64,000 bases of DNA from assembly GCF_026130545.1 (NCBI RefSeq), contig NZ_JAMOIM010000008.1, positions 153,038 to 217,037 on the forward strand, written 5' to 3'. This stretch comes from Lichenifustis flavocetrariae (GTDB lineage Bacteria; Pseudomonadota; Alphaproteobacteria; Rhizobiales; Beijerinckiaceae). A program made the translations under genes and the position numbers. Below, piece by piece: positions 6,401 to 29,606 of the stretch (within the stretch, counting starts at the first letter, position 1; every line of letters begins with the position of its first letter). The notes below the pieces were generated by a model, which was given only the letters and a program-made list of their open reading frames with translations, was not told the DNA's origin and did no database searches.

Positions 6401-6403
6401 ACC

Positions 6404-14406: not shown

Positions 14407-16290
14407 TCAGCGGTGGTCATCCTGTCCCAATGCTTTCAGCAGCGGTTGCAGCGAGGCCTCATAAGCGCGCCAGCGGCCGACCGAACTCCTGTATATTTTT
14501 TGCCGCACCTGTGTGGCGCTGGCTGTCGATACCGCGTGTCTGCCTTCCGTAAAGTTGAGGCAACCTGGATCCCAGGCAAGCCCACAATGGGCGATGATGC
14601 GCCTGGCCTGGCCTTCGAGATCATCGACCACGTCTTCGTATTCCACGTCGAGGATCGTGTCGGGAGGCAGAACGGCGCGCCAATGGGCCATGAGAGCCTC
14701 ATAGGCCCGGTAGTAACGGCCGAGCTCTGCGAGATCGTAGGTGAAGGGCTGGTGGCCGAAGAACAGTGTCGAGAAGCAGGACACGCAGGTGTCGATGGGA
14801 TCGCGGCGCGTGTGAATGATCCGTGCTTTGGGCAGAGCGAGGTGGATCAGGCCGGCCAGCCTGAAATTGTCCGGTAGCTTGTTGGTGACCCGCAAAGCCT
14901 CCGGTGCGATCTCCTGAAGATGCGCCGCATAGGTGGCCCCAATGCGCGCGAATGCGCTACGTGACATACGCGATGCCATTTCGGGCTCGTCGACGCAGCG
15001 TGTCTCTCCGCCACCCAGGGTCGCGACGGAAGCTTGAAACGCGCCGGTTTCACCCGCCGCATGCACGTCGGGGTGGGCAGCCAGAATCTGCTCGACGAGC
15101 GTGCTTCCCGAACGCGGCATGCCCAGGATGAACACTGGGAGATGGGAAGGATCACCGCACCCCGCGGCGTCTTCGACAAAATCCCGATCGAAGACGGATC
15201 TGATCCTGTCGAACATCGAGAGCGCCGAGCCTTCGTCGTAGGCCGTCTCGCGTCGCTTCAGGCTGTTGGCATCGCGGAAGTGGCGAAACGAAAGCTCCTT
15301 CGCGCCGGTGTCGGCCAACACCTTCCCGAGCGCGAAGCCGGCCTCGATGCGATCTTGCGCACATCGCGTCGCCTCGCTCGTGACCTGCGTCATGGTCTCG
15401 ATGAGAGCGGCATCCGAGGGCGTGAACCGCTTATACTGGGAGAGAACATAAAGAAGTCGGGCGTTTTTCGGATCGTTCCGGACGGCGCCTTCGATCGTGG
15501 CAAGGCCCTCCTGCAACCGGCCGAGTTCCGTCAGCAGAATGCTCTTGTTCGCCAGTGTGCTGGAATCATTGGGTTTGAGGGTGAGCGCGGTGTCGAAGGC
15601 CATCAGGGCCTCCGTTGGGCGCCCAAGGCTCTTCAGTGCGTTGCCGCGGAAATTATGGGCATCTGCCAGGGTGGGCACGAGCGCGATAGCTCGGTCGCAA
15701 CTCGCCAGCGCCTCGTCAAGGCGGAGGAGGTCGAGCAGGATCATGGCCCGGTTGCTGTGTGCCTCAGCATAGTCGGGCTTGTAGCCGATCGCTCTGTCGC
15801 AGCTTTTGAGCGCCTCCGCTGGACGTGCCAACTCGCGAAGGAGGTTGGCGCGGTTGTTGTGCGCTTGCATGTAGTCCGGCTTGAGGCTGATCGCCTTATC
15901 GTAGCTCACGAGCGCCTCCACTCGCCGGCCCAGCAGTTTGAGCGCGACGCCCTGATTGTTGAAGGCATCGGCCGCGAGAGGGTTGAGCTTGGTGGCCTTT
16001 TTGTAGGAGCGCAACGCCTCTTCGACACGCCCGAGATCCTTGAGGACATTGCCGCGATTGCTGTGCGCTGCCGCAAACCCGTTGTTGAGGGCGACCGCGC
16101 GATCGAAACTGGCAAGCGATTCTTGAAAGCGCGCCAGATTCGCCAATGCCACGCCCTGGGCATTGTACAATTGTGCGAGATCGCCGCCGGCCGGCATCGG
16201 TGAGGTGCTGCGCATAGGGTAAGCATGTGTCAGCAGGCTTAACGAATGGTAAAAGCCTGCCAGTTCGGCTCCCGCGACACAGTCTCTCAA
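14407..16290 (-). CDS. TPR-repeat protein fused to C-terminal sulfotransferase domain
   Basis: N-terminal TPR units ('AHSNRGNVLKDLGRVEEALRSYKKATKLNP' x ~7); C-terminal PAPS-binding 5'-PSB motif 'FILGMPRSGSTLVEQILAAHPDV' and 3'-PB region 'IHTRRDPIDTCVS'. Start may be at an internal Met (~16215). Confidence 0.75.
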   Translation of the reverse strand: MRDCVAGAELAGFYHSLSLLTHAYPMRSTSPMPAGGDLAQLYNAQGVALANLARFQESLASFDRAVALNNGFAAAHSNRGNVLKDLGRVEEALRSYKKATKLNPLAADAFNNQGVALKLLGRRVEALVSYDKAISLKPDYMQAHNNRANLLRELARPAEALKSCDRAIGYKPDYAEAHSNRAMILLDLLRLDEALASCDRAIALVPTLADAHNFRGNALKSLGRPTEALMAFDTALTLKPNDSSTLANKSILLTELGRLQEGLATIEGAVRNDPKNARLLYVLSQYKRFTPSDAALIETMTQVTSEATRCAQDRIEAGFALGKVLADTGAKELSFRHFRDANSLKRRETAYDEGSALSMFDRIRSVFDRDFVEDAAGCGDPSHLPVFILGMPRSGSTLVEQILAAHPDVHAAGETGAFQASVATLGGGETRCVDEPEMASRMSRSAFARIGATYAAHLQEIAPEALRVTNKLPDNFRLAGLIHLALPKARIIHTRRDPIDTCVSCFSTLFFGHQPFTYDLAELGRYYRAYEALMAHWRAVLPPDTILDVEYEDVVDDLEGQARRIIAHCGLAWDPGCLNFTEGRHAVSTASATQVRQKIYRSSVGRWRAYEASLQPLLKALGQDDHR

Positions 16291-16296
16291 GACGGC

Positions 16297-18393
16297 CTAC
16301 ACCGCCTCACGTGAGAGTTCGGCCAAGAGAGGCTGTAGGTAGGCCTCATACGCGTGCCAACGGCCGACGGATTGCCGGTAGAGGGGTTGTCTGACCTGGC
16401 TCGCGCTGGCCGTGAGAACAGGCCGGATCGCGTGCTGGAAGTCGAGGCAGCGGTCGGTCCATTCCAGCCCGCAATGCGCCAAAAGCCGGCGCGACTGGCC
16501 TTCAAGGTCGTCGACCACGTCCTCGTAGTCGATGTCGAGCATAACATCGGCCGGCAGGATCGCGCGCCAATGGTTCATCGTGGCCCGGTAGGCCGCATAA
16601 TAGCGGCCAAGTTCGCCGAGATCGTAGGTGAAGGGCTGGTGGCCCGTGAACCGTGTCGCGAAGCAGGACAGGCAGGTGTCGACAGGGTCGCGGCGCGTAT
16701 GGATGATCCGGGCGTCCGGCAGCATCAGCCGAATCAGGCCGACGAGTCGGAAGTTGTCGGGTGTCTTGTTGCTGACCCGCTTGGCGTTCGGTGCAACGGC
16801 GTCGAGCCGAGCCAGATAGTCTGCCCCCACCTGCTGCCAGTCCTCGGGCGAGAGGCTCGTCAAAGGCTCGGCCGCTTCGAGCAGGCGATCACCTTTCGGA
16901 CCAAGCGAGCGGATGGAAAGCCGGAGGTCGTCGATCTCTCCGGCCGCGAACACGTCGGGGTGACCGGCCAGGATCTGCTCGACGAGGGTGCTGCCTGAGC
17001 GCGGCATGCCCAGGATGAAGATGGGTCGTCGATCACCGTTGCCTCGTTCCGACCCTACCTTGAGTGACGTCGGCGTAAAGGCCGCCCGCATGCGGGCCAG
17101 GGCATTGAGGGTGGAGACCTCATCATAGCGGATCTGCGTGCGCTGTCGCCGGTTTCCGGCCAGCAGATGTTTGAACGCCGCCGCGGGGTCGCCGATGTCC
17201 GCATGGGCCTTTCCCAACCCGAAATGCAGATCGATCCGTTCGCGCGTCGAGAGGGACGTGTCGTGCGTAGCGCGCGCTTCCATCTCTCCGATCAGAGGAT
17301 CACCCTGGCGCATCCGTTTGCACTGCGTCAGGCTGTAGAAGAAGCCAGCTGTGCCGGGTTCGAGCACGAGAGCGGTTTCAAGCGCCACGCATCCCTCGGC
17401 GGTTCTGCCTATTTCCGTGAGGAGAAGACCCCGATTGGCGTGGGCGTCGGCGTAGGTAGGCTTGAGCGCCAGGGCTTCATCATAGGCGGCCAACGCTTCA
17501 GGGAGACGCTTCAGGTGCTTGAGGACGTTGCCCCGCATGTTGTGGGCCTCGGCATAGCCGGGGGAAGCCGCAAGGGCCGCATCACATGCTGCCAGAGCCT
17601 CGTCAAACCTCGCCACATCGATCAGCACGTCGGCGCGGTTGATGTGACCGTCGACATAGTCGGGTTGAAGCGTCAGCGCCGCGTCGTAGCTGGCCAGGGC
17701 CCGATCCAGATGGCCCAGGTCTCTCAACGCATTGCCGCGATTGTTGAGGGCGCTGACATAAGTCGGGCTGATCGCCAGGGCCTGGTCGTAGCTGGCCAGA
17801 GCCGCACCGGTGCGGCGCATCGCCTTGAGAACATTCCCCCGATTGTTGTGGGCCGCGGCCAGTCCAGGCTGGCAGGCGATCGCGGCATCGAAGGCGCCGA
17901 GAGCTTCCTCGAACCGCTTCAGCCCGGTCAGCAGATTGCCGCGATTGTTATGCGCTTCGGCGAAGATCGCGTTGCGCAGGATCGCTCGACCAAAGGCCTC
18001 CAGGGCCTCATCGACGCGGCCCAAGATCGCGAGGGTGTTGCCATGGTCGTTGTGCAACTCGGCCCAGTCGGGCCGCGCCGCAAGAGCTTGCTCGAAGGCA
18101 TGCAGTGCGGCGTGAGATTGTCCGAGCTTTGAGCGTACAAGCCCTGAAACCCGCAAAGCCGCCGCATCGCCGGGCCGGAGCTCCAGGCAGGCATCAAGCT
18201 GGGTGAGCGCTGCCTCATATCGTCCTTGCTCCATCAACACCGCGCCCAGGAGATAGCGGCTGTCGAAATGGACCGGGTCTTCAAGGAGAACCTGGCCATA
18301 CAGAGCCTCGGCATCTGAAAGGCGACGGGCTTGATGACTGGCGACGGCACGTTGGAAAGTCCTGGAGGACGCGCCCTTCAGCTTCGGCCTCAT
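16297..18393 (-). CDS. TPR-repeat protein fused to C-terminal sulfotransferase domain (paralog)
   Basis: Same architecture as 14407..16290 ('FILGMPRSGSTLVEQILAGHPDV', 'IHTRRDPVDTCLSCF'), ~50% identical by eye. Start placed at the internal Met 'MRPKLKG' to avoid overlap with the upstream GT41 gene. Confidence 0.75.
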   Translation of the reverse strand: MRPKLKGASSRTFQRAVASHQARRLSDAEALYGQVLLEDPVHFDSRYLLGAVLMEQGRYEAALTQLDACLELRPGDAAALRVSGLVRSKLGQSHAALHAFEQALAARPDWAELHNDHGNTLAILGRVDEALEAFGRAILRNAIFAEAHNNRGNLLTGLKRFEEALGAFDAAIACQPGLAAAHNNRGNVLKAMRRTGAALASYDQALAISPTYVSALNNRGNALRDLGHLDRALASYDAALTLQPDYVDGHINRADVLIDVARFDEALAACDAALAASPGYAEAHNMRGNVLKHLKRLPEALAAYDEALALKPTYADAHANRGLLLTEIGRTAEGCVALETALVLEPGTAGFFYSLTQCKRMRQGDPLIGEMEARATHDTSLSTRERIDLHFGLGKAHADIGDPAAAFKHLLAGNRRQRTQIRYDEVSTLNALARMRAAFTPTSLKVGSERGNGDRRPIFILGMPRSGSTLVEQILAGHPDVFAAGEIDDLRLSIRSLGPKGDRLLEAAEPLTSLSPEDWQQVGADYLARLDAVAPNAKRVSNKTPDNFRLVGLIRLMLPDARIIHTRRDPVDTCLSCFATRFTGHQPFTYDLGELGRYYAAYRATMNHWRAILPADVMLDIDYEDVVDDLEGQSRRLLAHCGLEWTDRCLDFQHAIRPVLTASASQVRQPLYRQSVGRWHAYEAYLQPLLAELSREAV

Positions 18394-18442
18394 GGCATTG
18401 CGACCGCTTGAGAGTGCGCCGAGGCGATGTCCGATCTCCGCC

Positions 18443-20413
18443 TCACGGGATCGCAACTCGGGCATCCGGAGGGAGCGGAAATGCCCGGTTCCATTCCGCA
18501 CGTTTTTCCCGGTAGAGGGCTTCGTAGTCGGCCTGACTCATCCCTTGAGCCGTCTCGATGTCCATGTTCAGCGCGATCTGATGATACACGTCGAGGTTGG
18601 TCAGGTCCGGAGGCGGCAATGTGCCGGCTTCATACATCGCCCACATGTCCTGGAAGGCCCGCTCCAGATGCGACACGAGACGCGGCGTGTCGAACAGCAG
18701 GCAGGTGTCACGCCCATCACGCAACCGCTCCTTGAGGCTTGCCAGTAGATCGCGATCCTGACCGAGTTCGACCGCACGGGCCACATAGGTCTCCGTGCTC
18801 TCACAGACGAGATCGGGCATCCCCGCCGCGGTGACCAGACTTGCGCAGACCCGGGACGCAAAACCGCGTCCCGGATGGGTCAGCACCGGGACCCCCATCC
18901 ACAAGGCATCCGCCGCCGTCGTATGGGCGCCATAAGGGCTGTTGTCGAGAAACAGATCCGCGAGCTGGTAGCGGGCCACGTGCTGCGGGTTGGTCGTCTT
19001 TTGCGCGAAGACCAGGCGGTCAGGCGCAATGCCGCGTGCGTTCGCCCAATCGCGCAGGCGACCTTGTGTCTCCGGCGTGCCACCGAGCAGCCAGAGCACG
19101 CTGTGAGGCACTTGTTCGAGGATCTTCATCCACAGTGTGAATGTCGCTTCCGTCAATTTCTGCAGACCGTTCAGGCAGCAATAGACGATCGCATCGTCGG
19201 GCAAGTGCTCGTTCTGCCGTGACGGCGACTGGCTCGCCACGACCCGCTTGCGGTCGTTGGGCTGGTAACACGGCAGACGTAGGACGGTTTCCGAGAAGTA
19301 GCGTTCATGGCCGTCCGGGACCGTCTGGGAATCGGCCAGGATGAAGTGGTGATAAGGGCTTCCCATGGTGGCAGGAAACCCGAACCAATTCACAGCGATC
19401 GGCGCCGGCCGCAAGGCGAATACCCGCGTTCGCGCGTCCTTGGTGTAGCCGTTGAGGTCGATCAGAATGTCGATGCCGTCGTCGCGGATTTTCTGCGCCG
19501 CCGCTTCGTCAGACAGCCCGCTGATGTCCGTCCAGTGATCGACCGCCGCCTTGGTCCGCGCCTTGGTCGGGTCGTCGCGTGAAATACCGCAATAATAGGC
19601 ATGGATGACGAAGCGGTTCCGATCGTGCAGTTCGAGCGTCTCGACGATCGAGAAGCCGACAGCATGTTCGCGCATGTCGGAGGATACGTAGCCGACTCGC
19701 AACCGTGTTTTCGACCCGGGCACCGGAGGGGGCGGAGGTTCCATCGGGGTGACCCGGCCCACCAGAGCCTTGTTGTAGTGGCAGGCGTTGGCGAGCTGGA
19801 ACAGCGGATCGTCGACCAGCGTCGCGAGCGACAGGGGCGAGATCCCGGCCAGGAGATCGCGCCGCGTGATCCGGTCGAAGGGTGTCAGCACCGGCCAGCG
19901 GCATTGCCGCATACGGAGCGCGATCCAGTGCTGGATCACCTTGTCGTCGCGCGCGAGTTCGAGGCGCCGTCTGAGCGCATCCTCGGCCGGGCCATCCTGG
20001 TCAAGCCCTTCAAGGACCCGGCCCGTGTTTTCGAGTGCCATGATCTTATGAGTCAGGCTCTCGGCATTGACGGCCACAAGATCTTCCGCGACGGCGAGCC
20101 AGTGCCTGATGGCCGGCCCGTTCTGGCCGGTTTTTTCGAGTGCGAGCCCAAGACTCAGCTGGGCTTGGTGAAAATCCGGCTTGAGCCGGGCCGATTCCCG
20201 GAACGCGATGATGGCGCCGGCCGTGTCCGGCGCCTCGTTCAGCGATGTCCCATAGTTGAAATAAGCGGCGTAGAGGAGCGGATCGTCCTCGTGGCAGGCG
20301 ATCCACATCTTGTAGAGGTCGATGACCGCCGATGGTTGCCCGGATCGCTTCGTGATCTCGGCCAAACCGAACAATTCACCGATCGAGAGGTTTTGGAAGG
20401 CTCCAACGTCCAT
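18443..20413 (-). CDS. TPR-containing GT41-family glycosyltransferase (O-GlcNAc transferase / SPINDLY-like)
   Basis: C-terminal OGT-like catalytic blocks 'VYCCLNGLQKLTEATFTLWMKILEQVPHSVLWLL...RLVFAQ...YQLADLFLDNSPYGAHTTAADALWMGVPVLT' preceded by TPR repeats. Starts 62 nt after the giant repeat gene stop. Confidence 0.8.
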   Translation of the reverse strand: MDVGAFQNLSIGELFGLAEITKRSGQPSAVIDLYKMWIACHEDDPLLYAAYFNYGTSLNEAPDTAGAIIAFRESARLKPDFHQAQLSLGLALEKTGQNGPAIRHWLAVAEDLVAVNAESLTHKIMALENTGRVLEGLDQDGPAEDALRRRLELARDDKVIQHWIALRMRQCRWPVLTPFDRITRRDLLAGISPLSLATLVDDPLFQLANACHYNKALVGRVTPMEPPPPPVPGSKTRLRVGYVSSDMREHAVGFSIVETLELHDRNRFVIHAYYCGISRDDPTKARTKAAVDHWTDISGLSDEAAAQKIRDDGIDILIDLNGYTKDARTRVFALRPAPIAVNWFGFPATMGSPYHHFILADSQTVPDGHERYFSETVLRLPCYQPNDRKRVVASQSPSRQNEHLPDDAIVYCCLNGLQKLTEATFTLWMKILEQVPHSVLWLLGGTPETQGRLRDWANARGIAPDRLVFAQKTTNPQHVARYQLADLFLDNSPYGAHTTAADALWMGVPVLTHPGRGFASRVCASLVTAAGMPDLVCESTETYVARAVELGQDRDLLASLKERLRDGRDTCLLFDTPRLVSHLERAFQDMWAMYEAGTLPPPDLTNLDVYHQIALNMDIETAQGMSQADYEALYREKRAEWNRAFPLPPDARVAIP

Positions 20414-20474: not shown

Positions 20475-23400
20475 CTACGAGGCGGCCTCGCTCAATGCGG
20501 CCAGTTGTGCGGCAGTCATGACGGCGGTTTGTGTGGTTGTGAGGGCGGCGATCTGGACCCCGTTCAAGGCCTCGATTTCGGTCACTGTCAGGTTGGAGAT
20601 CGTGGTCGTGCTGAGCGTCGACACCTGGGTCGTGGTCAGGCCGCTGAGCTGTACGGCACTCAGCTGTGCGAGCGTCGTCGCGCCGAGATTGCTGAGCTGC
20701 AGCGTCGACAGGCCGCTGATCTGCGTCGGCGTCAAGGCGCTGAAAAGCGTCGAGGTCAGGCCGGAGAGTTCCGTCGTCGTCAGGTTGACCATCTGCGTGG
20801 TCGTCAGCGATGCGATCTGGCTCGCCGACAAAGCGTTGAGCTGACTGGTCGACAAGGCGCGAAGCTGATCGCGCGCCAGCCCTGTCAGCTGGCTGGCGGT
20901 GAGCCCGGCCACCTGCGTGGTGCTCAGGGCCGCCACGTCGGCCGACGAGAAGGCCTGCAGCTGGACCGCCGTGAGCCCCGCGAACTGGGTCGACGTGAGT
21001 GCCGCGAGCGCCGTCGGGGCCAGGCCCGCGATGGCCGCGCTGGAGATCCCGCCGATCTGGGTCGCGGAGAGCACCGCGAATTGCGTCGTGGTCAAGGAAG
21101 CGATCTCGGTGGCCGACAGGCCGCTCATCTCGGTCGCCGACAGAAGACCGATCTGTGTCGTGTTCAGGCTCGCGAACTGGGTCGCGGTCAGTGCCGAGAT
21201 GGCGGAGGCCGAGAGGCTGCTGAACTGCGTCGAAGAGAGGGCGGCGATCTGTGTCGTGGTAAGCTCGGAGACGGCCGTAGTCGAGAGGGCGGACATCTGC
21301 GTCGCGGTCAGCGCACTCACCTGGGTCGACGACAAGGAGGCGAGCTGGCTCTGGCTCAGGCCCGCGACACCCGTGGTGGAGAGCGCCGCGATCTGGGTCG
21401 CGCTAAGCGCCGCGAGATCGTCCTCGGAGAGCGTCGCGATCTCGGCCGAGGTGAAGCCGCTCATCTCGGTGGCCGTCAGAAGCCCGAGTTGTGTCGTGGT
21501 CAGCGCTGCGAACTGGGTCGACGTGAGCGCGCCGATTTCCGTCGAATTGAAGCCTTGCAACTGCGTGGTGGTGAGCGCCCCGATCTCGGCGAGCGTCAGG
21601 CCCGCGATGGCGGTCGTCGGCAACCAGGAGAGCTGGGTGGAGCTCAAGGCGCCGAGCTGATTTGGCGACAGGGCGCCGAGCTGGGTCGATGTGAGCCCGC
21701 TGAGACCTGTGGTCACGAGTGCCCCAATCTGCGTCGCGTTCAGGGTCGCGAGTTGCGTCGGCGTCAGTGCCCCGACCTGCGTTGCCGTCAAGCCGCCCAT
21801 CTCGGTGGTCGACAGAAGCGCGATCTGGCTTGTCGTAAGACCGGCGAATTGCGTGGACGACAGGGCCGCAATGCCGGTCGCCGAGAGACTGGCGAACTGT
21901 GTCGTCGTCAGCGCGGCGAGTTCGGCGTTGCTGAGACCACTGAGCGCAGTGGTCGATAGCCCCGCGATCTGTGTCGACGTAATGGCCCCGAGTTGCGTCG
22001 TCGACAGCAGCCCGATCTCGGTGGAGGTCAAGCCGCCGACCGCCGTCGTGCTGAGGGCTCGCAGAGCCGTCGTCGTCAGGGCCGCGACTTGCGCGGCGCT
22101 GAGGTCCGACACTTGCGTGGCGGTCAGACCCTGGGCCTGCGTGGTCGTGAGGGCGGCGATCTCCGAGGCCGTAAAGGCGTCCATCTGCACCGTTGAGAGC
22201 GCACCGATCTGCGTGGAACTCAAGGCGCCAAGCTGATCCGGCGTGAGGGCGGCGATCTGGCTGGTTGTGATGCCGCTGACGCCAGCCGTGGACAAGGCTG
22301 CAAGCTGCGTCGTTGTGAGGGCGTTGAATTGGCTGGCGGTCAGCGCGGAAGCCTGGGTTTGCGTCAGCCCCGCGATGCCGCGAGTCGTGAAGGCGCCAAG
22401 CTGTGTCGTGGTCAGCGCCGCGACGACCTGACTGCTGAGCGCGCCAACCTGAGTCGACGTGAGGCCACGGATTTGCAGGATCGTCAGGCCGGTCGCTTCG
22501 CTCGTCGTCAGGGCCGCGATGGCTGTGGTGGAGAGGCCCGAGATCTGCGTTGAGGAGAACGCACCGAACTGGCCCGCGCTCAAGCCGACGATCTGCTGGT
22601 CGTTGAGCGCCGACATCTGCGTCGCCGTAAGGGCCTGAACCTGTGTGATCGTCAGGGCCGCGAGTTCCGTGGTCGTCAAGCCGCTCACGGCCGAGGTGGA
22701 GAGCGCCGCCACCTGGGTGTCGGCAAGCGCGCCGATTTGCGTCAGTGTAAGTGCTGCCGCCTGCGCATTCGTGAGGCCGCCGAGTTCGGCCGAATTCATG
22801 GCCGCGACTTGCGTGGCCGTGAAGGCCGAGATTGCGGTCGTGCCGATCGCGCCCAACAAGGTGGGCGTCAGGCCGCGCACCTGGGTTGTGCTGAGCGCGG
22901 CGAGTTCGGTCGTCGTCAGCCCCGTGATGGCGCCGGGATCGATCGCCGCGATCTGCGTCGACGACAGGGCGGCGAGTTGGCCGATCGTCAAGGCGCCAAG
23001 TTGGGTGTCGGCGAGCGCATCCATCTGTGTGGTGCCGAGCGCCGCGATCTGGGTACTGGTCAAAGCTGCGATATCAGAGATCGACAGCCCGCCAAGGCCG
23101 GTCGTCGACAAGCCGGCGATTTGGCTTGCGGCGAGCGCGGCCAGCTGGCCTGTGCTCAAGGCGGCGACCTGGGTATCGACCAGCGCGGCCACCTGCGTGC
23201 TGCCTAGGGCCCCGAGCTGTGTTGCGCTCAAACCCGCGAGTTCGCTCGACGTGAACCCGGAGACAGCCGCCGCCGACAAGGACGAGATCTGGGTCGTCGC
23301 CAGGGTCGAGAGCTGAGCGGTAGTCAGCGCCGCGACCTGGGTCTGGTTGAGACCGCCCATCGCGGTCCGGGTCAGAGCCTGAATTTGTGCCGTACTGAGG

Positions 23401-26400
23401 GCGGCGATCTGCGTGTTGGCGAGTGTGCCAATCTCGGTGACGGTCAGGTTTGCGATTTGCGTGGAGGTCAGCGCCGCAATGGTGGTGGTCGTGAGGCCGC
23501 TGACGCCGGTCGTCGACAGGGCAGCCGCCTGCGCGGCCGTCAATGCGCCCACTTGCGTGGCTGTCATGGCCGAGATCTGCGTGTCCGTGAGGGCACCGAT
23601 CTGCGTCGTTGTCAGGGCGCCGATCTGCGTCAGCGTCAGCGCCGCGATATCGGTGCTGGTTAGGCCGCCGATGCCGGCGGTCGAAATGCGCGCGACCTGC
23701 GTGGACGTCAGGTTGCCGAGCTGCGTCGTCGAGAGCTGGGAAATGAGGGTCTGGGTCAGCCCCGAGATCGCGGAGGTGCTGAGGGCGGCGATCTGCGCCG
23801 CGCTCAGGGCGGCAAGCTGAGTCCCGGCAAATGCGCTCGCCTCAACCGCGGTCAGGGCCGAGACTTGCGTGGTCGTCAGGCCCGAAATTTGGGTCGCCGT
23901 CAGTCCGCTGAGGCCGGTGGCCGAAAGGGCGGCGATCTGCTGCGTCGAGAGCTGCCCCAATTGCGTCGCCGAGAGGCTGCCGATCTGTGTATCCGTCAAG
24001 GCTGTGATCTGGCTTGGCGTCAACGCCGCGAGTTGCGTCGTGTTCAGGGCCTGCATGGCGGACGTGCTGAGCCCGGGAAGGCTATTGGTGGAAAGGGCTG
24101 TGGCCTGTCCGGTCGTGAGGGCTGCGATCTGGCTCGTCGTCAACTGGCCGAGTTCGGTGGGGGTGAGGGCCGTCGCCGCCGTGGTGGTGAGGGCCGCGAC
24201 CTGGGTCGTCGAAAGAGCGGCCAATTGCGTCCCGCTGAGAGCCGCCGCTTCGGTCGCGGTCAGAGCGCCGACCTGGGTCGTGCTGAGGCTCGTGACCTGG
24301 GTCGCCGTGAGACCGCTGATTCCGGTCGTCGAGAGCGAGGCGACCTGGCCCGGCGAAAGATTGGCGATCTGGCTCGTCGACAAAGCGGCGACCTGCGTGT
24401 CCACAAGGGCGTTGGCCTGCGCGCTCCCGAGGACGGCCACCTGGGTCGTCGCCATTGCGGCGATCTGGCTCGTCGTCAATCCGCCAAGACCCGTCGACGA
24501 GAGGGCCGCGATCTGGGTGATCAGGAGCGCGGCGATCTGGGAGGTGCCGAGAGCCGCCACTTGGGTGCCGAGCAGCGCTTTGATCTGGGTCGCTCGCAGC
24601 GCCGTCAGCTGGCTCGTCGTCAGGTTCATCAGATCGGATGAAGAAAGGCCTTGCAGGCCGGCGACCGAGAGCGCCCCGACCTGTGTCGTGGTGAGGGCCG
24701 CCATTTGAGCCGAGGTCAGGGCCGTGACCTGCGTCTGGTTCAGTCCACCGACCGCCGTCTGGCTGAGCGACGGGATCTGCGTGGTGGTGAGCGACTGGAT
24801 CTGGGTGCCCGCAAAACCGCCGAGCTCAATGGCGGTCAGTTGGGCCACCTGTGTCGTGGTGAGGGCCGCGATCGTGCTGGTCGCGAAGCCACCCACGCCG
24901 GTGGCCGACAGTGCCGCGAATTGGGCCGCCGACAGCACGCCGATCTGTGTCGCCGTCAGGGCCGCCACCTGGGTCGCCCCCAGGGCGCCGACCTGCGCGG
25001 GTGTGAGGGCGTTCAGCTGGGTCGAGGTCAGAGCGCCGATCTGTGTGGCGGTCAAGCCGGTCACGCCGCTGCTCGACAGCCTCGCGATCTGCGTCGTGGC
25101 GAGATTGCCGAGCTGGGTGATCGTCAGATCAGCGACCAGGCTCGCCGTCAGTCCCGAAATCCCGGAAGTTGTCAGCGCGCCGATCTGAGCCGGGCTCATG
25201 GCCTCGATCTGCGTATCGGCAAGCTGACCGACTTCCGTGGCCGTCAGGGCCGCGACCTGTGTGGTCGTCAAAGCGCCGATCTGCGTCACGGCCAAGCCGC
25301 TGAGGCCGGTCGAGGTGAGAGCCGCGATCTGCTGCGCCGAGAGTTGGCCGAGTTGGGCCGGCGACAGACTGGCGATCTGGGTGTCCGCCAGGGCTTTCAC
25401 CTGCGTGGCGGTGAGGGCGGAGATCTGCTGGGTGCTGAGGGCCGCGACCGCGCCTGTGCTGAGGGCCGCGACGGCGGTGGTTGACAAAGCCGCGACCTGG
25501 CGCGTCGTCAACGCGCCGAGCTGTGTGGTGCTGAGAGCCGACACCGCCGTCGTGGCGAACCCGCCCACCGCCCGGGTGCCGAGTGAAGCCACCTGCGTGG
25601 TGCTCAAGCTCGCGATCTGGGTTTGGCCCAGCGCTTGACCCTCAGTCGTCGTCAGCGCCGCAAGTTGGGTCGTGCTGAGGGCGCCCATCAAGGTTTCGGT
25701 CAGGCCGCTGAGGCCGGTCGTCGACAAGGCCGCGATCTGCGTCGTCGACAGCACGCCGAGTTGCGTCGTCGACAGCGCGCCGACCTGGGTGTCATCGAGA
25801 CTATTGACCTGGGTGCTGGTCAGCGCACCGAGTTGCGTGCCGCCAAGTGCCGCGATAGCGCTGGAATCCAGGCCGTTGATGCCGGTCGTCGACAGGGCTG
25901 AAACCTGGCTTTGATAAAGCGACGTCAGCTGGCTGGTGCTCAGGGACGCCACCTGGGTGTCGACCAATGCCGTGATCTGGACCGTTCGCAGGGCGGCGAG
26001 TTGCGTTGCCGCGAGGGCGGCAAGTTCGGTCGAGGTCAGGCCCGCGATCGCCGTTGTGGTGAGGGCCGCGATCTGGGTGGCCGCGAGAGCCGCCACTTGG
26101 GTGGTGGTCAACGTGGCGATCTGACTTTGGCTCAATCCGGCGAGTGCCGAGCGGGTCAATGCCGCGATTTGCGTCGGCGTCAGAGCGTTGATCTGTGTCA
26201 GCGCGAAGGCGGTAAGTCCGGTCGAGGTCAGCGCGCCGACCTGTGAGGTCGTCAGTGCCGAAACCGTGTCGGTGGTCAGGCCAGCGATCCCGGAGGTCGA
26301 CAGTGACGAAACCTGAACGGTGGTCAGTGCTGCGGTCTGCGTGGCCGTCAGGGCGCCAATCTGGGTCGCCGTGAGGGCGGCAACCTGTGTGCTGCTCAGG

Positions 26401-29400
26401 GCGCCGAGTTGCGTCAGCGCCAACGCCGAAAGCTGGGTATCGGACAGACCGCTCAGTCCCGTCGCGGTCAATTTGGCGATCTGGGCTGTCCCTAGGCTCG
26501 CAAGCTGAGCGGTGCTGAGATCGGACACGAGCGACGTCGTGAGGCCTGAGATTCCGGACGTGCTGAGGGCGCCGATCTGCGTCGCGCTCATCGCCTGGAT
26601 CTGTGTATCCGCGAGTTGGCTCGCCTCGGTCATGGTCAGAGCCGAGACCTGGGTCGTCGTCAGAGCCGCCACCTGGGTCACGGCAAGTCCGCTGAGGCCG
26701 GTCGACGACAGGGCGGCGATCTGCTGAATGGAGAGCTGCGCGAGCTGTGTTTGCGAAAGGTTGGCGATCTGCGTGTCGACCAGCGTCCGCATCTGCGTGG
26801 TCGTCAGAGCGCCGATCTGCTGCGTGCTCAAGGCCGCAAGGGCGGACGGCGTGAGCGCCGTGATGCCGGTCACCGACAGTCCGGTGATCTGCTGGGTCGT
26901 GAGCGCGCCGATCTGCGTCGCGCTGAGTGAGGTCAGGGCTGTCGTGGCCAGGCCGCTGGCCGCCGTCGTGCTGATCGCGGCCACTTGCGTCGTGCTGAGG
27001 GCCGCGAGTTGCGTTTGGGTCAGTGCGCCGATGCTTGCCGAGGTCAGGGCGCCCAATTGTGTCGTGTTGAGCGCTGCCAGTAATGAAACCGTAAGGCCCG
27101 TGACGCCGGTGGTGGACAGCCCCGCGATCTGGGTGACGTTCAGGCTACTCAGTTGCGTGATGCTGAACGCGCCGATCTGGGTATCCACCAGACCGCTGAC
27201 GGCGCTTCGCGTCAGTCCGCTGAGTTGGACATTGGTCAGCGCGGCGATCTGGTCGCTGGTGAGCGCCGACGATTCCGTGCTGGTCAACCCCGACATCTGG
27301 GTGACGCTGAGCTGCCCGATCTGATCGAGGGTCAAACCGCCGATCTGCGTTGTCGTCATCGCGCCGATTTCGGCCGAGGTCAGCGATGCGAATTGCGTCA
27401 ACGACAGATTGCCGAGCGAGGTCGCGCTCAGGTTTGCGACCTGGGTCGCCGAAAGAGACTGGACCGCCAGGGCCTGGATCGTGGCCTGGCTCATATCCGT
27501 CAACTGCGTGGCCGTGAACCCGCGGATCTGCGCGCCCGTCAAACCGGTCAATTGGGCGGTCGTCAGCTCGGCGAGGGCGGTATCGCTCATCCCTGAGATC
27601 TGAGTGGCGGTGAGGCCGGCCAGTTGGGTCGTCGTGAAGGACTGGACCTGAGTGGCCGCCAGTCCGTTCAACACCGTGGTGCTCATGGCGGCGATTTGCG
27701 AGGCCGTGAGTGCCGAGAGCTGGCTTGCCGCGAAGGCGCCGATGCTGTCCGTGCCCAGGCCGGCGATCTGGCTGGTGGCGAGCCGGGATGCCGTCAGAGC
27801 CTGGAGCGACGTCGTCGACATATCGGCCAGCTGAACCGTCGAGAAACCGGCCATCTGGGCCGCCGTCAGCGCCGCGAGTTGCGTCGTCGTCAGTTCGGCG
27901 ATCGTCGTGTCGCTGAGCCCGGCGAGCTGCAGGGCTTGCAGGCCCGCCACTTGCGTGGTCGTCATGGCCTGGATCGCGGCGGCCGAGAGGTTGCTGAGAG
28001 ACGTGGTTGAGAGGGCGCCGACCTGCGTTGACGTCAGGGCCGCCAACTGGGCATCGGAGAGGTTCGCCAGGGCCGTGGCGCTCAGATTGGCGACCTGTGT
28101 TGTCGATAGGAATGAAGCCGGCAAAGCGTTGAGCGAGGACGGAGCCATGTCACTCAGCTGGGTTGACGTCAGCCCCTGTACTTGAGGCGCTGTCAGCCCG
28201 GACAGGAGTGTCGTCGTCAAAAGACCTAGCGTCGTATCGGTCATGTTGCCGAGTTGGCGCGGCGCCAGTCCGGCCGCCTGCGTGGTGGTCAGAGCCTGGA
28301 TCTCGGTCGGCGTCAGATTGTTCAAGACGTCGCTGCTCAAAGCGCCGATCTGCGCCGCGGACAGCGACGTGACCTGGTCACTCGTGAGATTGGCGACCGC
28401 CGTCGTGCTGAGGGAAGCGACCTGGATTGTGCTCAGCGATCCGACCGTGAGAGCCTGGATCATCTCGGCTGGCAAGTCGGTCAACTGGGTCGCGGTCAAT
28501 CCTCGGATCTGGCCGGTCGTGAAGGCCGCGATCTGGGCCGGCGTGAAGGCGGCCAGTGTGGCGTCGGTCAGGCCAGAGATCTGGGTTGAGGTGAGCGCCC
28601 CGGTCTGCGTGCTGGTCAGCGCTTGCACTTCGTCCGTTTGCAGCGCGTTGAGGGAAGGAATCGAGAGGGCCTGGACTTGTGCGGCCGACAAGCCGGCGAT
28701 CTGCGTCGCCGAAAGGTTGGCGAAGGCCGTCGACGACAATTGCCCGATCTGCGTTGCCGAGAATGTTGCGACCGGAATCGCCTGCATGGCGGCGGTCGAC
28801 AACCCCGAGAGCTGGTTCGGCGTCAGCCCACGCACTTGCTGGGTCGTCAGCGCGGCCATCTGGGTCGTCGTCAGTTCGGCAAGGCTCGTGCTGGTGAGAC
28901 CTGTGATTTGGCTCGCTGTGATCCCGGCTTCCTGCGTGGCGGTGAGCGCCTGCATTTCATCCTGCGACAGCGCATTGAGACCGGAAACCGACAAGGCCCC
29001 GACCTGGGTCGCGGCCAGCGAGGCGACCTGCGTGGAGGAGAGGTTCTGGACCTCTGTCGCGTTGAGACCCGACATTTGCGATGCGGTCAGATTGGCGGGA
29101 TCGAGCGCCAGGATCTGGTTCAGGAGCAGGCTGTTGAGTTGTGCGGTCGACAGGGTACCGACCTGCGTGGCGTTCAACTGGCCGAATTGCGTGGCCGTCA
29201 AATTCGACAGGGTCGTCGTGGACAGGCCGGCGATCTGGGGTCTGATCAACGCACTGAGTTGCTGGACACTGAGGGATTGAACTTCTCCCGGATCGAGCGA
29301 ATTCAGTTCCTGCGCCGACAACGCCGACATCTGGCTCGACGTGAAGGCCGAGAGATCGCTGGCGGCGAGCGCGTTGAAGGACGCCAGTGAGAGCCCGGAG

Positions 29401-29606
29401 AGAGCCGAGGGCGAGATGCCGCTCACCTGGTTTGCCGAAAGTGCTTCGAGATTGGTGGTGCTGAATTCGATCAGTTCGACCGAGGTCAGCGCCGCGACTT
29501 CCGTGGTTTCGAAGCTTTCGACGTCGCTGGTCGTGAATTGCTGGATGGTGGTCGCACTCAGCCGCGCGATCTGCGCTGCCGTCATCGACGAAAGGATCGA
29601 TGTCAT
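20475..29606 (-). CDS. Giant (3043 aa) Ser/Thr/Gln-rich protein composed of ~380 tandem octapeptide repeats
   Basis: Uninterrupted 9132-nt ORF. Translation is almost entirely 8-aa units such as ALTTTQIA / ALSTTQVG / GLTATQIS (consensus [AGS]L[ST][ST][ST]Q[IV][AG]). No N-terminal signal peptide, no Cys, almost no charged residues. Confidence 0.8.
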   Translation of the reverse strand: MTSILSSMTAAQIARLSATTIQQFTTSDVESFETTEVAALTSVELIEFSTTNLEALSANQVSGISPSALSGLSLASFNALAASDLSAFTSSQMSALSAQELNSLDPGEVQSLSVQQLSALIRPQIAGLSTTTLSNLTATQFGQLNATQVGTLSTAQLNSLLLNQILALDPANLTASQMSGLNATEVQNLSSTQVASLAATQVGALSVSGLNALSQDEMQALTATQEAGITASQITGLTSTSLAELTTTQMAALTTQQVRGLTPNQLSGLSTAAMQAIPVATFSATQIGQLSSTAFANLSATQIAGLSAAQVQALSIPSLNALQTDEVQALTSTQTGALTSTQISGLTDATLAAFTPAQIAAFTTGQIRGLTATQLTDLPAEMIQALTVGSLSTIQVASLSTTAVANLTSDQVTSLSAAQIGALSSDVLNNLTPTEIQALTTTQAAGLAPRQLGNMTDTTLGLLTTTLLSGLTAPQVQGLTSTQLSDMAPSSLNALPASFLSTTQVANLSATALANLSDAQLAALTSTQVGALSTTSLSNLSAAAIQAMTTTQVAGLQALQLAGLSDTTIAELTTTQLAALTAAQMAGFSTVQLADMSTTSLQALTASRLATSQIAGLGTDSIGAFAASQLSALTASQIAAMSTTVLNGLAATQVQSFTTTQLAGLTATQISGMSDTALAELTTAQLTGLTGAQIRGFTATQLTDMSQATIQALAVQSLSATQVANLSATSLGNLSLTQFASLTSAEIGAMTTTQIGGLTLDQIGQLSVTQMSGLTSTESSALTSDQIAALTNVQLSGLTRSAVSGLVDTQIGAFSITQLSSLNVTQIAGLSTTGVTGLTVSLLAALNTTQLGALTSASIGALTQTQLAALSTTQVAAISTTAASGLATTALTSLSATQIGALTTQQITGLSVTGITALTPSALAALSTQQIGALTTTQMRTLVDTQIANLSQTQLAQLSIQQIAALSSTGLSGLAVTQVAALTTTQVSALTMTEASQLADTQIQAMSATQIGALSTSGISGLTTSLVSDLSTAQLASLGTAQIAKLTATGLSGLSDTQLSALALTQLGALSSTQVAALTATQIGALTATQTAALTTVQVSSLSTSGIAGLTTDTVSALTTSQVGALTSTGLTAFALTQINALTPTQIAALTRSALAGLSQSQIATLTTTQVAALAATQIAALTTTAIAGLTSTELAALAATQLAALRTVQITALVDTQVASLSTSQLTSLYQSQVSALSTTGINGLDSSAIAALGGTQLGALTSTQVNSLDDTQVGALSTTQLGVLSTTQIAALSTTGLSGLTETLMGALSTTQLAALTTTEGQALGQTQIASLSTTQVASLGTRAVGGFATTAVSALSTTQLGALTTRQVAALSTTAVAALSTGAVAALSTQQISALTATQVKALADTQIASLSPAQLGQLSAQQIAALTSTGLSGLAVTQIGALTTTQVAALTATEVGQLADTQIEAMSPAQIGALTTSGISGLTASLVADLTITQLGNLATTQIARLSSSGVTGLTATQIGALTSTQLNALTPAQVGALGATQVAALTATQIGVLSAAQFAALSATGVGGFATSTIAALTTTQVAQLTAIELGGFAGTQIQSLTTTQIPSLSQTAVGGLNQTQVTALTSAQMAALTTTQVGALSVAGLQGLSSSDLMNLTTSQLTALRATQIKALLGTQVAALGTSQIAALLITQIAALSSTGLGGLTTSQIAAMATTQVAVLGSAQANALVDTQVAALSTSQIANLSPGQVASLSTTGISGLTATQVTSLSTTQVGALTATEAAALSGTQLAALSTTQVAALTTTAATALTPTELGQLTTSQIAALTTGQATALSTNSLPGLSTSAMQALNTTQLAALTPSQITALTDTQIGSLSATQLGQLSTQQIAALSATGLSGLTATQISGLTTTQVSALTAVEASAFAGTQLAALSAAQIAALSTSAISGLTQTLISQLSTTQLGNLTSTQVARISTAGIGGLTSTDIAALTLTQIGALTTTQIGALTDTQISAMTATQVGALTAAQAAALSTTGVSGLTTTTIAALTSTQIANLTVTEIGTLANTQIAALSTAQIQALTRTAMGGLNQTQVAALTTAQLSTLATTQISSLSAAAVSGFTSSELAGLSATQLGALGSTQVAALVDTQVAALSTGQLAALAASQIAGLSTTGLGGLSISDIAALTSTQIAALGTTQMDALADTQLGALTIGQLAALSSTQIAAIDPGAITGLTTTELAALSTTQVRGLTPTLLGAIGTTAISAFTATQVAAMNSAELGGLTNAQAAALTLTQIGALADTQVAALSTSAVSGLTTTELAALTITQVQALTATQMSALNDQQIVGLSAGQFGAFSSTQISGLSTTAIAALTTSEATGLTILQIRGLTSTQVGALSSQVVAALTTTQLGAFTTRGIAGLTQTQASALTASQFNALTTTQLAALSTAGVSGITTSQIAALTPDQLGALSSTQIGALSTVQMDAFTASEIAALTTTQAQGLTATQVSDLSAAQVAALTTTALRALSTTAVGGLTSTEIGLLSTTQLGAITSTQIAGLSTTALSGLSNAELAALTTTQFASLSATGIAALSSTQFAGLTTSQIALLSTTEMGGLTATQVGALTPTQLATLNATQIGALVTTGLSGLTSTQLGALSPNQLGALSSTQLSWLPTTAIAGLTLAEIGALTTTQLQGFNSTEIGALTSTQFAALTTTQLGLLTATEMSGFTSAEIATLSEDDLAALSATQIAALSTTGVAGLSQSQLASLSSTQVSALTATQMSALSTTAVSELTTTQIAALSSTQFSSLSASAISALTATQFASLNTTQIGLLSATEMSGLSATEIASLTTTQFAVLSATQIGGISSAAIAGLAPTALAALTSTQFAGLTAVQLQAFSSADVAALSTTQVAGLTASQLTGLARDQLRALSTSQLNALSASQIASLTTTQMVNLTTTELSGLTSTLFSALTPTQISGLSTLQLSNLGATTLAQLSAVQLSGLTTTQVSTLSTTTISNLTVTEIEALNGVQIAALTTTQTAVMTAAQLAALSEAAS
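20484..29590 (-). repeat. 24-nt-period tandem coding repeat array (~380 units)
   Basis: Nucleotide-level 24-bp periodicity underlying the octapeptide repeats. Every alternative frame on both strands also gives long periodic pseudo-ORFs. Confidence 0.85.

Follow-up and report, generated by a model that had tools for sequence, protein, structure and literature searches.

A conserved pair of genes for a giant ALTTAQ-repeat protein and an OGT-like GT41 glycosyltransferase, accompanied by TPR-sulfotransferases in Lichenifustis flavocetrariae

Does a gene cluster of Lichenifustis flavocetrariae encode a dedicated system in which a giant Ser/Thr-rich protein is glycosylated and sulfated by the products of its neighbouring genes? 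The stretch of 64 kb analysed here (the window) contains four co-directional open reading frames on the minus strand. They encode a giant ALTTAQ-repeat protein (20475..29606, 3043 aa), a GT41 glycosyltransferase (18443..20413, 656 aa) and two TPR-sulfotransferases, ST1 (16297..18393, 698 aa from the ATG at 18393) and ST2 (14407..16215, 602 aa from the ATG at 16215). The stop codon of the giant gene and the start of the GT41 gene are separated by 61 nt. The gap between GT41 and ST1 is 49 nt with the ATG at 18393; the earlier start candidates at 18456, 18465 and 18501 create an overlap of 14–59 nt with the GT41 gene, and the NCBI model of ST1 (719 aa) starts at 18456. ST1 and ST2 are 81 nt apart with the ATG start of ST2 or 6 nt with an alternative TTG at 16290 (627 aa). 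An earlier note on this DNA gave gaps of 62, about 50 and 7–80 nt, and its description of four co-directional genes with short gaps holds: the reading frames are real, and a consensus scan detected no terminator-like site between them.

An EamA/DMT-family transporter gene (13435..14304, minus strand; Pfam EamA, E 4e-23, with only a weak NCBIfam match) follows co-directionally 102 nt downstream of ST2 and may be the fifth and last gene of the same transcript; an EamA gene was found beside the giant–GT41 pair in no other locus examined. On the minus strand downstream of the cluster, the only terminator-like site outside coding sequence is a hairpin just 3' of the EamA stop codon (13421..13433); it is weak evidence since the scan found such sites at chance level (11 versus 9.8 expected). 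The giant gene and a divergently oriented GNAT acetyltransferase gene are separated by 161 nt (29607..29767). The promoter of the cluster is presumed to lie in this interval, although the consensus scan located no sigma-70-like site in it. An exporter, a sugar-nucleotide gene or a PAPS-synthesis gene was absent from the 64-kb window, which counts against the mechanism proposed below.

The giant affiliates with the ALTTAQ_rpt family (PF20080, E 1.6e-294, 75 stretches). Its repeats span residue 1 to the C-terminus in a strict period of eight residues (369 clean units, about 370 in all) with the consensus L-[TS]-[TAS]-[TS]-[QE]-[ILV]-[AGS]-[AG], in agreement with the regular array ascribed to this 3043-aa protein. 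No signal peptide and, by Pfam, no RTX nonapeptide repeats were detected. The protein is acidic (net charge about -77) and contains no Cys or His, one Tyr and three Lys. Ser and Thr add up to 931 residues (30.6%), fewer than the >1000 claimed previously. A folded alpha-solenoid with one 5-residue helix per repeat was predicted with high confidence by AlphaFold2 (residues 1–471, pLDDT 87). Ser and Thr occupy the helix N-cap and first-turn positions: repeat position 2, a Ser or Thr in 78% of the units, is the N-cap and forms a capping box with the Gln/Glu at position 5. This is a sufficient structural reason for the Ser/Thr pattern, so Ser/Thr richness alone is no sign of glycosylation, a point that also weighs against the mechanism. 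The predicted fold, these positions and a Pro content of 1.1% contradict the mucin-like product envisaged in the earlier note. In a gapless alignment with the 3043-aa orthologue from locus L001 (63.9%), hydroxyls were kept at 90% of positions 2, 84% of positions 4 and 72% of positions 3, and at 37% of positions 7–8, a pattern that speaks for the giant as substrate.

The GT41 enzyme had been described as OGT/SPINDLY-like, and its matches agree: PF13844 (E 2e-82), XcOGT as best PDB match (2jlb, E 1e-81, residues 130–564), human OGT (3e-78) and SPINDLY (8e-48), versus only 1e-3 for HMW1C/NGT structures. By sequence comparison it is XcOGT/OGT-like and not an NGT; a listed protein of Lichenifustis flavocetrariae is 100% identical with it. 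The match with XcOGT (XCC0866) from Xanthomonas campestris takes in the two catalytic lobes as well as the TPR-like region. As in XcOGT and eukaryotic OGT, the catalytic His, Lys and HTT are kept: H250 aligns to H218 of XcOGT, K419 to K388 and H497-T498-T499 to the HTT motif, all of them invariant in alignment A2. The N-terminal domain had no significant Pfam TPR match; residues 42–108 weakly match the OGT TPR domain (1w3b, E 2.7e-7), the domain also weakly matches the short TPR-like region of XcOGT, and the orthologues display faint TPR matches. The domain is thus TPR-like but short and degenerate, more so than the TPR part of OGT; of the three enzymes to which TPRs had been assigned, ST1 and ST2 have clear ones and GT41 has this degenerate form. 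The C-terminal tail is subfamily-specific, and a signal peptide is absent. XcOGT reportedly served as a structural model, and to our knowledge no natural substrate has been identified for it. Unlike XcOGT, the GT41 of the window is genetically linked to a specific substrate candidate.

This linkage is widespread: dozens of bacteria from soil and lichens retain the pairing of giant and GT41. The two genes are adjacent in seven related Hyphomicrobiales loci (L001, L002, L003, L006/L007, L008, L010 and L012; divergently oriented in L002). The flanks of the pair vary: its neighbour is dnaA in both Methylosinus and Methylocapsa, and the genes that flank it in the window are all missing from L001–L005. 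A metagenome scan yielded 57 loci with a GT41 at least 45% identical, 45 of them informative (at least 300 nt upstream). In 41 of the 45 (about 90%) an ALTTAQ ORF adjoins the GT41 gene: directly upstream on the same strand in 39 (gaps 57–435 nt), upstream and divergent in one and downstream in another. The internal control comprised 22 loci whose GT41 relatives share 32–43% identity; just one of them had such an ORF. The linkage survives inversions and transpositions (L002, L019, L023, L027 and L036), no gene besides the giant is conserved beside GT41 across loci, and the conserved core is the giant and GT41 only. Counting against the mechanism are four loci of the subfamily in which GT41 has no ALTTAQ protein beside it; L026, one of the four, lies inside a flagellar cluster. 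In the distant lineage of L016, the neighbours of a 657-aa ALTTAQ/Ca-binding protein are a C39-like-TPR-GT41 fusion (E 4e-85 and 32% identity with the window GT41), a C39-ABC exporter and an HlyD protein; this link was assembled independently. Adjacency across Hyphomicrobiales families despite rearrangement, the distant recurrence and the conserved catalytic residues support the functional link between giant and GT41 that had been suggested, with the giant as candidate substrate.

ST1 and ST2 were rightly regarded as paralogous TPR-sulfotransferases. Both consist of many TPR repeats and a Sulfotransfer_3 domain (PF13469; ST1 E 4e-46, ST2 E 1e-49), which in ST1 is C-terminal and PAPS-type. Their pairwise identity of 51% indicates that ST2 is an old paralogue, not a recent duplicate. 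Both retain the 5'-PSB loop PRSGST, the GE (catalytic base in TPST), the lysine of NK and the RRD of the 3'-PB. They share with TPST1/2 the PAPS-binding motifs and the positions of the catalytic Glu and Lys. Unlike TPST1/2, the two proteins are bacterial and cytoplasmic, have their domain fused to 7–10 TPRs and share low identity with them. The best solved relative of the domain is the protein-tyrosine sulfotransferase 8w5z (E 7e-10), and the family also matches polyketide sulfotransferases (4gox); the acceptor is therefore not readable from homology. The domain is nearest to tyrosine sulfotransferases, yet the adjacent candidate substrate has a single Tyr, which counts against its sulfation.

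Sulfotransferases accompany the pair in three Lichenifustis/Lichenihabitans loci: the window, L001 and L012. An ST1 orthologue directly follows GT41 in L001 (52% identity, 4-nt overlap) and L012 (56%, 7-nt gap). None was found beside the pair in the 57 metagenome loci, 30 of which extend at least 2.5 kb downstream, or in L002, L003, L006–L008 and L010; the sulfotransferases are lineage-specific. Across genomes and metagenomes, giant and GT41 thus co-occur widely, and the sulfotransferases join them within Lichenifustis/Lichenihabitans only. Other modules include FkbM methyltransferases (L010, L027 and L036) or NDP-sugar SDR enzymes (L010, L044, L051, L056 and L068). In L088, a cluster unrelated to the ALTTAQ cluster, an RTX protein, a TPR-sulfotransferase and a TPR-GT41-GT2 protein are encoded in a row, so the sulfotransferase–GT41 enzyme pair recurs; TPR-sulfotransferases adjoin other TPR-GT41 genes in L082 and L078 as well. 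The earlier note is hence upheld in part: the giant–GT41 link stands, the mucin-like product does not, and the coupling in L001 and L012 together with L088, set against the absence from other loci and a mostly solitary family, weakly suggests that the sulfotransferases belong to the system. Sulfation of the giant is plausible.

Our preferred reading, to which we assign a probability of roughly 0.55, is that the giant and a dedicated cytoplasmic OGT-like GT41 constitute a glycosylation module, with the sulfotransferases as lineage-specific tailoring enzymes of the same protein. The analysis shows the gene anatomy, the domain families, conserved catalytic motifs, conserved linkage and a predicted fold; that the giant is the acceptor, which sugar is donated, what is sulfated and how the product is exported are inferred as follows. 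GT41 would dock on the repetitive giant via the short TPR-like domain at its N-terminus, via its subfamily-specific tail or via both, and move a sugar from a nucleotide sugar, putatively and most simply UDP-GlcNAc, onto many exposed Thr/Ser hydroxyls at repeat positions 3–4. Transfer would occur before or during folding of the giant and ahead of any export because GT41 lacks a signal peptide and the donor is cytoplasmic. The Lichenifustis/Lichenihabitans lineage has gained TPR-fused PAPS sulfotransferases, one in Lichenihabitans and two in the window, whose target may be the sugar on the giant or, with lower likelihood, its Ser/Thr hydroxyls; other lineages have FkbM methyltransferases or sugar-nucleotide enzymes at the corresponding position. 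The expected product is an acidic rod or fibre of great length that would be glycosylated, in this lineage probably also sulfated, and that probably leaves by a non-Sec route. OGT-type enzymes bind extended peptides, and the folded state predicted for the giant counts against this mechanism.

Parts of this scheme have precedents. In Haemophilus influenzae, the modification of HMW1 by HMW1C takes place in the cytoplasm (PMC2877744); HMW1 is the dedicated substrate of this enzyme and is multiply modified ahead of its export (PMC2877744, PMC3012730). The window shares the logic of a cytoplasmic GT41 beside a very large repetitive protein, here a candidate substrate only; the analogy drawn in the earlier note fails for the enzyme type, OGT/XcOGT-like and not NGT-like. 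Unlike HMW1, a beta-helical two-partner-secretion protein, the giant is a predicted alpha-solenoid of 8-residue repeats, and its cluster has sulfotransferases and no TpsB partner. FlmG of Caulobacter crescentus, a soluble protein, binds flagellin by its TPR N-domain ahead of export and O-glycosylates Ser/Thr by its GT-B C-domain (PMC7591256); docking by the TPR-like domain and cytoplasmic O-glycosylation by GT41 would be similar, whereas FlmG belongs to another glycosyltransferase family, with pseudaminic acid as donor and flagellin as substrate. Like type I-secreted RTX adhesins, the giant is a very large, repetitive and acidic protein devoid of Cys and of a signal peptide, and in some relatives the module is bordered by type I exporter genes (ABC and HlyD in L016, L028 and L042); unlike RTX adhesins, it lacks their nonapeptides, and the window lacks an exporter.

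Possible, though clearly less probable than the preferred reading, is a glycosylation pair of giant and GT41 whose sulfotransferase neighbours are unrelated, sharing only the transcript or insertion site and acting on another acceptor, for example a polysaccharide, a lipid or the Tyr of a different protein or peptide. The 57 metagenome and six genome loci without a sulfotransferase beside the pair, the TPST-like domain and the single Tyr of the giant fit this explanation. So does the size of the TPR-sulfotransferase family (4887 matches at E <= 1e-30), whose close members are solitary amid housekeeping genes in Methylocystis heyeri (L013) and L014. The M. heyeri gene lies a few kb downstream of an SHMT-ribD-ribE block, with an EamA gene nearby, and the same block flanks the window's cluster, so ST2 could be an older resident there. 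Mere neighbourhood explains less well that an ST1 orthologue accompanies the pair in three genomes with different flanks, translationally coupled to GT41 in L001 and L012, and that TPR-sulfotransferases adjoin TPR-GT41 genes in three further loci, in L088 directly after the large RTX protein.

It is unlikely that GT41 leaves a merely co-regulated giant unmodified and serves other targets, such as flagellar components or, like Yersinia HmwC, many cytoplasmic proteins, or acts as a TPR chaperone or regulator. Flagellar genes beside the pair (L012, L037, L049 and L070), the GT41 of L026 in its flagellar cluster without a giant, the awkwardness of a folded solenoid for OGT and known bacterial GT41 enzymes with several substrates (PMC11329713) speak for such a role. 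They are outweighed by a giant in about 90% of informative subfamily loci and not beside distant GT41s, by a linkage that outlasts rearrangement, by the independent assembly in L016 and by the lack of any other conserved neighbour. Very improbable is an N-glycosyltransferase adding hexoses to Asn in N-X-S/T sequons of the giant, as HMW1C does on HMW1. This precedent of a GT41 beside a giant substrate (PMC2877744, PMC3012730) and 29 sequons among 59 Asn would fit; however, sequons arise automatically where position 2 is mostly Ser/Thr, the NGT equivalog model scored 24 bits against a cut-off of 1000, and the E-values of about 1e-3 for HMW1C/NGT lie far from those for XcOGT and OGT. Under the preferred reading, the linked giant is a natural-substrate candidate for bacterial OGT-type enzymes that is open to direct testing.

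The four co-directional minus-strand genes described for this region in the earlier note were borne out by the ORF map and translation. They encode the giant repeat protein (20475-29606, 3043 aa), a GT41 glycosyltransferase (18443-20413, 656 aa) and two TPR-fused, TPST-like sulfotransferases, ST1 (16297-18393, ~700 aa) and ST2 (14407-16215, ~600 aa); a co-directional EamA transporter gene (13435-14304, minus strand) comes next after ST2. The intergenic gaps measure 61 nt between giant and GT41, 49 nt between GT41 and ST1 (an overlap under an earlier ST1 start) and 6-81 nt between ST1 and ST2. A consensus scan detected no terminator-like hairpin between the four genes and one just 3' of the EamA gene, such sites being overall at chance level. 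The shared direction, gaps of at most 81 nt and absence of internal terminator-like sites are consistent with a single putative operon. Housekeeping genes surround the cluster: the rib operon, nusB and rpsF-rpsR-rplI to one side, GNAT, SPFH and ThuA genes to the other. Within the window, neither ABC nor HlyD genes were found, and Rfam and tRNA scans gave no matches. GT41 and ST1 were 100% identical to Lichenifustis flavocetrariae proteins in the protein collection. Between 20001 and 30000, across the giant gene only, the GC skew is +0.09 to +0.12 and the AT skew negative, a compositional footprint of minus-strand Thr/Ala/Gln/Leu codon repeats and not a replication signal. An ordinary pyrimidine-degradation-like set at 51337-58477 (PreT/PreA-type dihydropyrimidine dehydrogenase subunits, an M20 peptidase and an amidohydrolase), with DprA, homoserine dehydrogenase and GlpX downstream, bears no relation to the giant and GT41.

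The giant affiliates with the ALTTAQ_rpt family (Pfam PF20080; E 1.6e-294, 949.7 bits versus a cut-off of 26.4, 75 stretches). Its repeats run from residue 1 through the C-terminus, ~370 eight-residue units of which 369 are clean, with the consensus L-[T/S]-[T/A/S]-[T/S]-[Q/E]-[I/L/V]-[A/G/S]-[A/G], and neither a signal peptide nor a distinct end domain was recognized in the protein. The DNA repeats are old and diverged; only a 24-nt periodicity with 60-80% match is seen at this level. A regular Ser/Thr array had been proposed from the first reading, and the eight-residue regularity holds, whereas composition gives 931 Ser/Thr (30.6%) instead of the more than 1000 stated there. The protein contains no Cys or His, one Tyr, one Trp, three Lys and 1.1% Pro, and its net charge is ~-77.

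An AlphaFold2 model of residues 1-471 (pLDDT 87, pTM 0.69) predicts a regular helix-turn solenoid. On this model, Leu1 and Ile/Val6 of the repeat would lie in the core, Ser/Thr2 would form the helix N-cap and Thr3 and Thr4 would occupy the first helical turn, while Gln/Glu5 at N3 would complete a classical S/T-x-x-E/Q capping box with Ser/Thr2. The Ser/Thr richness would thus be explained structurally by N-cap and first-turn positions, and positions 3-4 would still provide each repeat with two hydroxyls in that turn, presumably exposed to solvent. A mucin-like glycoprotein had been expected as the product. Mucin-like repeat regions are disordered and rich in Pro, Thr and Ser, and this reading was rejected on the predicted folded solenoid, the low Pro content and the predicted N-cap and first-turn location of Ser/Thr. 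As an alpha-solenoid of eight-residue repeats without a solved relative, the giant would represent an uncharacterized fold type.

The orthologue from Lichenihabitans sp. Uapishka_5 (locus L001, 844-9975) also has exactly 3043 aa; it aligns with the giant as a single block without gaps, 63.9% identical. Between the two, hydroxyls are kept at 90% for position 2, 84% for position 4, 72% for position 3 and 37% for positions 7-8. Although ~370 units stand in tandem, their number has stayed fixed between Lichenifustis and Lichenihabitans; this points to selection on length as such, as would be expected of a ruler or spacer. When the protein collection was searched with the N-terminal 471 residues, the matches listed were smaller ALTTAQ proteins (400-800 aa, P0121-P0240) and no giants. 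These are fused to a calpain-type Peptidase_C2, to the Ca-binding 'SPM' domain (PF26745) or to DUF4347, and further partners are DUF4351, a type IV pilin N-methylation motif and DUF1217. ALTTAQ thus acts as a general-purpose stalk or spacer, and the proteins that contain it are probably secreted or located at the surface. A full-text literature search for ALTTAQ or PF20080 returned nothing relevant.

The neighbouring glycosyltransferase belongs to Pfam PF13844 (Glyco_transf_41; E 2e-82, 277.5 bits versus a cut-off of 25). Its best structural match is XcOGT (2jlb, E 1e-81, residues 130-564), followed by human OGT (3e-78) and SPINDLY (8e-48). H250, K419 and H497-T498-T499 align with H218, K388 and the HTT motif of XcOGT and are invariant among 12 subfamily members; in the published OGT and XcOGT structures, catalysis and UDP binding are assigned to H218 and K388 (H498 and K842 in the human enzyme) together with the H-T-T motif. 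Membership in the HMW1C/NGT group was rejected, the NGT equivalog NF049992 scoring 24.3 bits versus 1000 and the structures 3q3e and 8j30 matching at E ~9e-4. TPR domains had been assigned to all three enzymes of the cluster; ST1 and ST2 carry them, whereas the N-terminal 200 residues of GT41 appear, judged by similarity, to form only a weak, degenerate TPR-like domain. No Pfam TPR match was obtained for GT41 at E <= 0.01, the match to the OGT TPR domain 1w3b is weak (E 2.7e-7), the alignment to XcOGT starts at chain residue 97 of the latter, and orthologues show faint TPR matches.

A joint function of giant and GT41 is supported by their linkage across genomes. An orthologous GT41 gene adjoins a giant ALTTAQ gene in three Lichenihabitans loci (L001, L003, L012), lies divergently on the opposite strand in Beijerinckia sp. 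L45 (L002), and accompanies the giant beside dnaA in Methylosinus (L006, L007) and Methylocapsa aurea (L008). The two genes are also adjacent in a 'Rhizobiales bacterium GAS' genome (L010). None of the genes flanking the cluster in the window was found in L001-L005. Metagenomes were then scanned by GT41 alignment (79 loci among the matches listed), and the six-frame ORFs of these loci were searched with an ALTTAQ HMM built from the giant. GT41 was at least 45% identical in 57 listed loci, 45 of which extend at least 300 nt upstream. Among these 45 informative loci, which share phylogeny with one another and are not independent samples, an ALTTAQ ORF adjoins GT41 in 41: directly upstream on the same strand in 39 (gaps 57-435 nt), upstream and divergent in one (L019) and downstream in one (L027). 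No ALTTAQ neighbour was detected in the other four (L026, L050, L059 and L065; only ~235 nt upstream in L050). The giant also lies downstream of GT41 in L023 and L036. Among the listed loci with a more distant GT41 (32-43% identical), only one of 22 (L075) contained an ALTTAQ ORF. All-against-all clustering of the neighbouring ORFs yielded no third gene conserved beside the pair. That the pair persists at GT41 identities of 45-72%, amid changing flanks and through several rearrangements, speaks for selection to keep the two genes together.

In a separate lineage, locus L016 (1298-11997) encodes a protein of 657 aa that joins ALTTAQ repeats to a Ca-binding C-terminal region, and next to which, on one side and divergent, lies the gene for a 1208-aa C39-like-TPR-GT41 fusion (32% identical to the window's GT41, E 4e-85; no Pfam match in its C-terminal ~450 residues) and, on the other, a C39-ABC exporter followed by an HlyD-family protein; the arrangement suggests a type I system in compact form that would 'glycosylate then secrete'. 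GT41 does not accompany all ALTTAQ proteins: the ALTTAQ-calpain fusion of L015 has no GT41 neighbour, and a DUF1217-ALTTAQ protein is encoded in a flagellar cluster in L017.

Beside the constant pair, the place taken in the window by the sulfotransferases is filled in other lineages by different accessory genes. FkbM methyltransferases occur in L010, L027 and L036, and SDR enzymes of the NDP-sugar epimerase/dehydratase type in L010, L044, L051, L056 and L068; no specificity could be assigned to the SDR enzyme, which scores below every NCBIfam equivalog cut-off. In view of these variable genes, the donor may not be plain UDP-GlcNAc in all lineages. An NDP-sugar SDR encoded in the upstream fragment of L059 carries GDGSQTRSFCYVDDL, which we take to resemble a UDP-xylose synthase motif. 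HlyD and ABC genes accompany the pair in L028 and L042, and MacB-type ABC genes in L027 and L035. RTX nonapeptide repeats, a mark of type I secretion substrates, are absent from the giant (no HemolysinCabind match); exporter genes flank ALTTAQ-GT41 modules in L016, L028 and L042, so that type I export of the giant is possible. Flagellar genes recur as well (L012 12157-13389, L037 4793-6334, L070 1-534, L049 14743-18700), and FlgE either comes right after GT41 or after the sulfotransferase, or precedes the giant; in L049, FlbT, FlaF and three flagellin genes follow 3-7 kb downstream. A subfamily GT41 without a giant is located inside a flagellar cluster in L026, and a DUF1217-ALTTAQ-DUF1217 protein is encoded after FlaF in L017 (6001-7650). 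Giant and GT41 may be connected with the flagellum or with flagellar export.

ST1 and ST2 combine many TPR repeats with a Sulfotransfer_3 domain (PF13469; 158.5 and 169.8 bits versus a cut-off of 27). Both contain the PAPS-binding motifs PRSGST (5'-PSB) and RRD (3'-PB), and their GE and NK align to catalytic positions of TPST. The nearest solved structures are protein-tyrosine sulfotransferases (8w5z, E 7e-10; TPST2, 1e-4); with low identity, and with a polyketide sulfotransferase among the matches as well, these similarities do not reveal the acceptor. Bulk tyrosine sulfation of the giant was rejected for its single Tyr in 3043 residues, with two to three in the orthologous giants of sulfotransferase-bearing loci. 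A recent tandem duplication was likewise discarded, since ST1 and ST2 are 51% identical in pairwise comparison, no closer than either is to homologues in other genomes. With 4887 matches at E <= 1e-30, TPR-sulfotransferase fusions form a very large, uncharacterized family. Stand-alone homologues were found in Methylocystis heyeri and one other genome. In M. heyeri (L013 1-2512, 8001-10706), the gene lies a few kb downstream of SHMT-ribD-ribE, with EamA nearby, and the same block flanks the cluster in the window (5084-9764). ST2 may be an older resident of the neighbourhood, beside which the triad of giant, GT41 and ST1 landed.

The conserved co-occurrence raised earlier as a check extends to giant and GT41 and not to the sulfotransferases: beyond the window, an ST1 orthologue follows GT41 only in L001 (52% identity, 4-nt overlap) and L012 (56%, 7-nt gap). 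No sulfotransferase domain was detected in the 57 listed subfamily loci, 30 of which extend at least 2.5 kb downstream, or in L002, L003, L006-L008 and L010. The main rival explanation builds on this distribution, taking the glycosylation pair as real and the sulfotransferases as unrelated neighbours; we consider it somewhat unlikely. A constant core of substrate and transferase with variable tailoring genes resembles glycan-diversifying loci, and this is the main reason why ST1 and ST2 are placed in the system. Independent support comes from TPR-sulfotransferase genes that adjoin TPR-GT41 genes of non-ALTTAQ type in L088, L082 and L078. In L088 (2-11023), the gene for a large RTX (HemolysinCabind) protein of at least 1470 aa precedes one for a TPR-sulfotransferase, which is followed by one for a TPR-GT41-GT2 protein of 1430 aa, and the locus ends in a HlyD fragment; here the two enzyme types accompany another class of large repeat protein. 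In L078 (6886-18789), on a metagenome contig of 49% GC, three TPR-GT41 genes and one for a TPR-sulfotransferase form an island without an ALTTAQ protein.

Beyond the gene linkage itself, we infer the following course throughout. GT41 would most likely glycosylate the giant in the cytoplasm on Thr/Ser of the repeats, probably before folding is complete; in the Lichenifustis lineage, ST1 and ST2 would then add sulfate to glycan or hydroxyl groups; and the resulting fibre, long and acidic, would leave the cell by a non-Sec route. We assign the statement as a whole a probability of about 0.55. Among its parts, a functional link between giant and GT41 is likely, the role of the giant as the GT41 acceptor somewhat less so but more probable than not, while action of ST1 and ST2 on the same molecule is proposed tentatively. 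A bolder version, which we regard as unlikely, sees a proteoglycan-like bacterial fibre, a ~370-repeat solenoid O-glycosylated by an OGT-type GT41 on hundreds of regularly spaced Thr/Ser to which TPST-like enzymes, guided by their TPRs, would then add sulfate, either on the sugar or on Ser/Thr itself.

In logic, the pair of giant and GT41 resembles HMW1/HMW1C (PMC2877744, PMC3012730) and FlmG/flagellin (PMC7591256). As an enzyme, GT41 is akin to XcOGT and OGT, and ST1 and ST2 are akin to TPST-like Sulfotransfer_3 proteins. Literature searches that joined GT41 with TPR, sulfotransferase and type I secretion returned only papers on HMW1C, FlmG, OGT and Yersinia HmwC, and in the literature no description was found of an ALTTAQ giant as partner of a dedicated GT41 subfamily, of its short-helix solenoid fold or of added TPR-sulfotransferases.

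Bacterial OGT homologues such as XcOGT serve as structural stand-ins for human OGT. To our knowledge, the natural substrates of these homologues are mostly unknown, and the cluster offers a testable candidate together with a possible bacterial glycoprotein sulfation system. If the proteoglycan-like version is true, a dedicated system of protein glycosylation plus sulfation would be seen in bacteria for the first time, and a bacterial OGT homologue would gain its first bulk substrate from nature. If ST1 and ST2 act on the giant, this would be a rare case of bacterial protein or glycoprotein sulfation and a first handle on the very large TPR-sulfotransferase family; if they do not, giant and GT41 would still be a new conserved substrate-enzyme pair. 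A whole GT41 subfamily, widespread in Hyphomicrobiales of soil, peat and lichens and carried also by the methanotroph Methylosinus, has an obvious, genetically linked candidate substrate.
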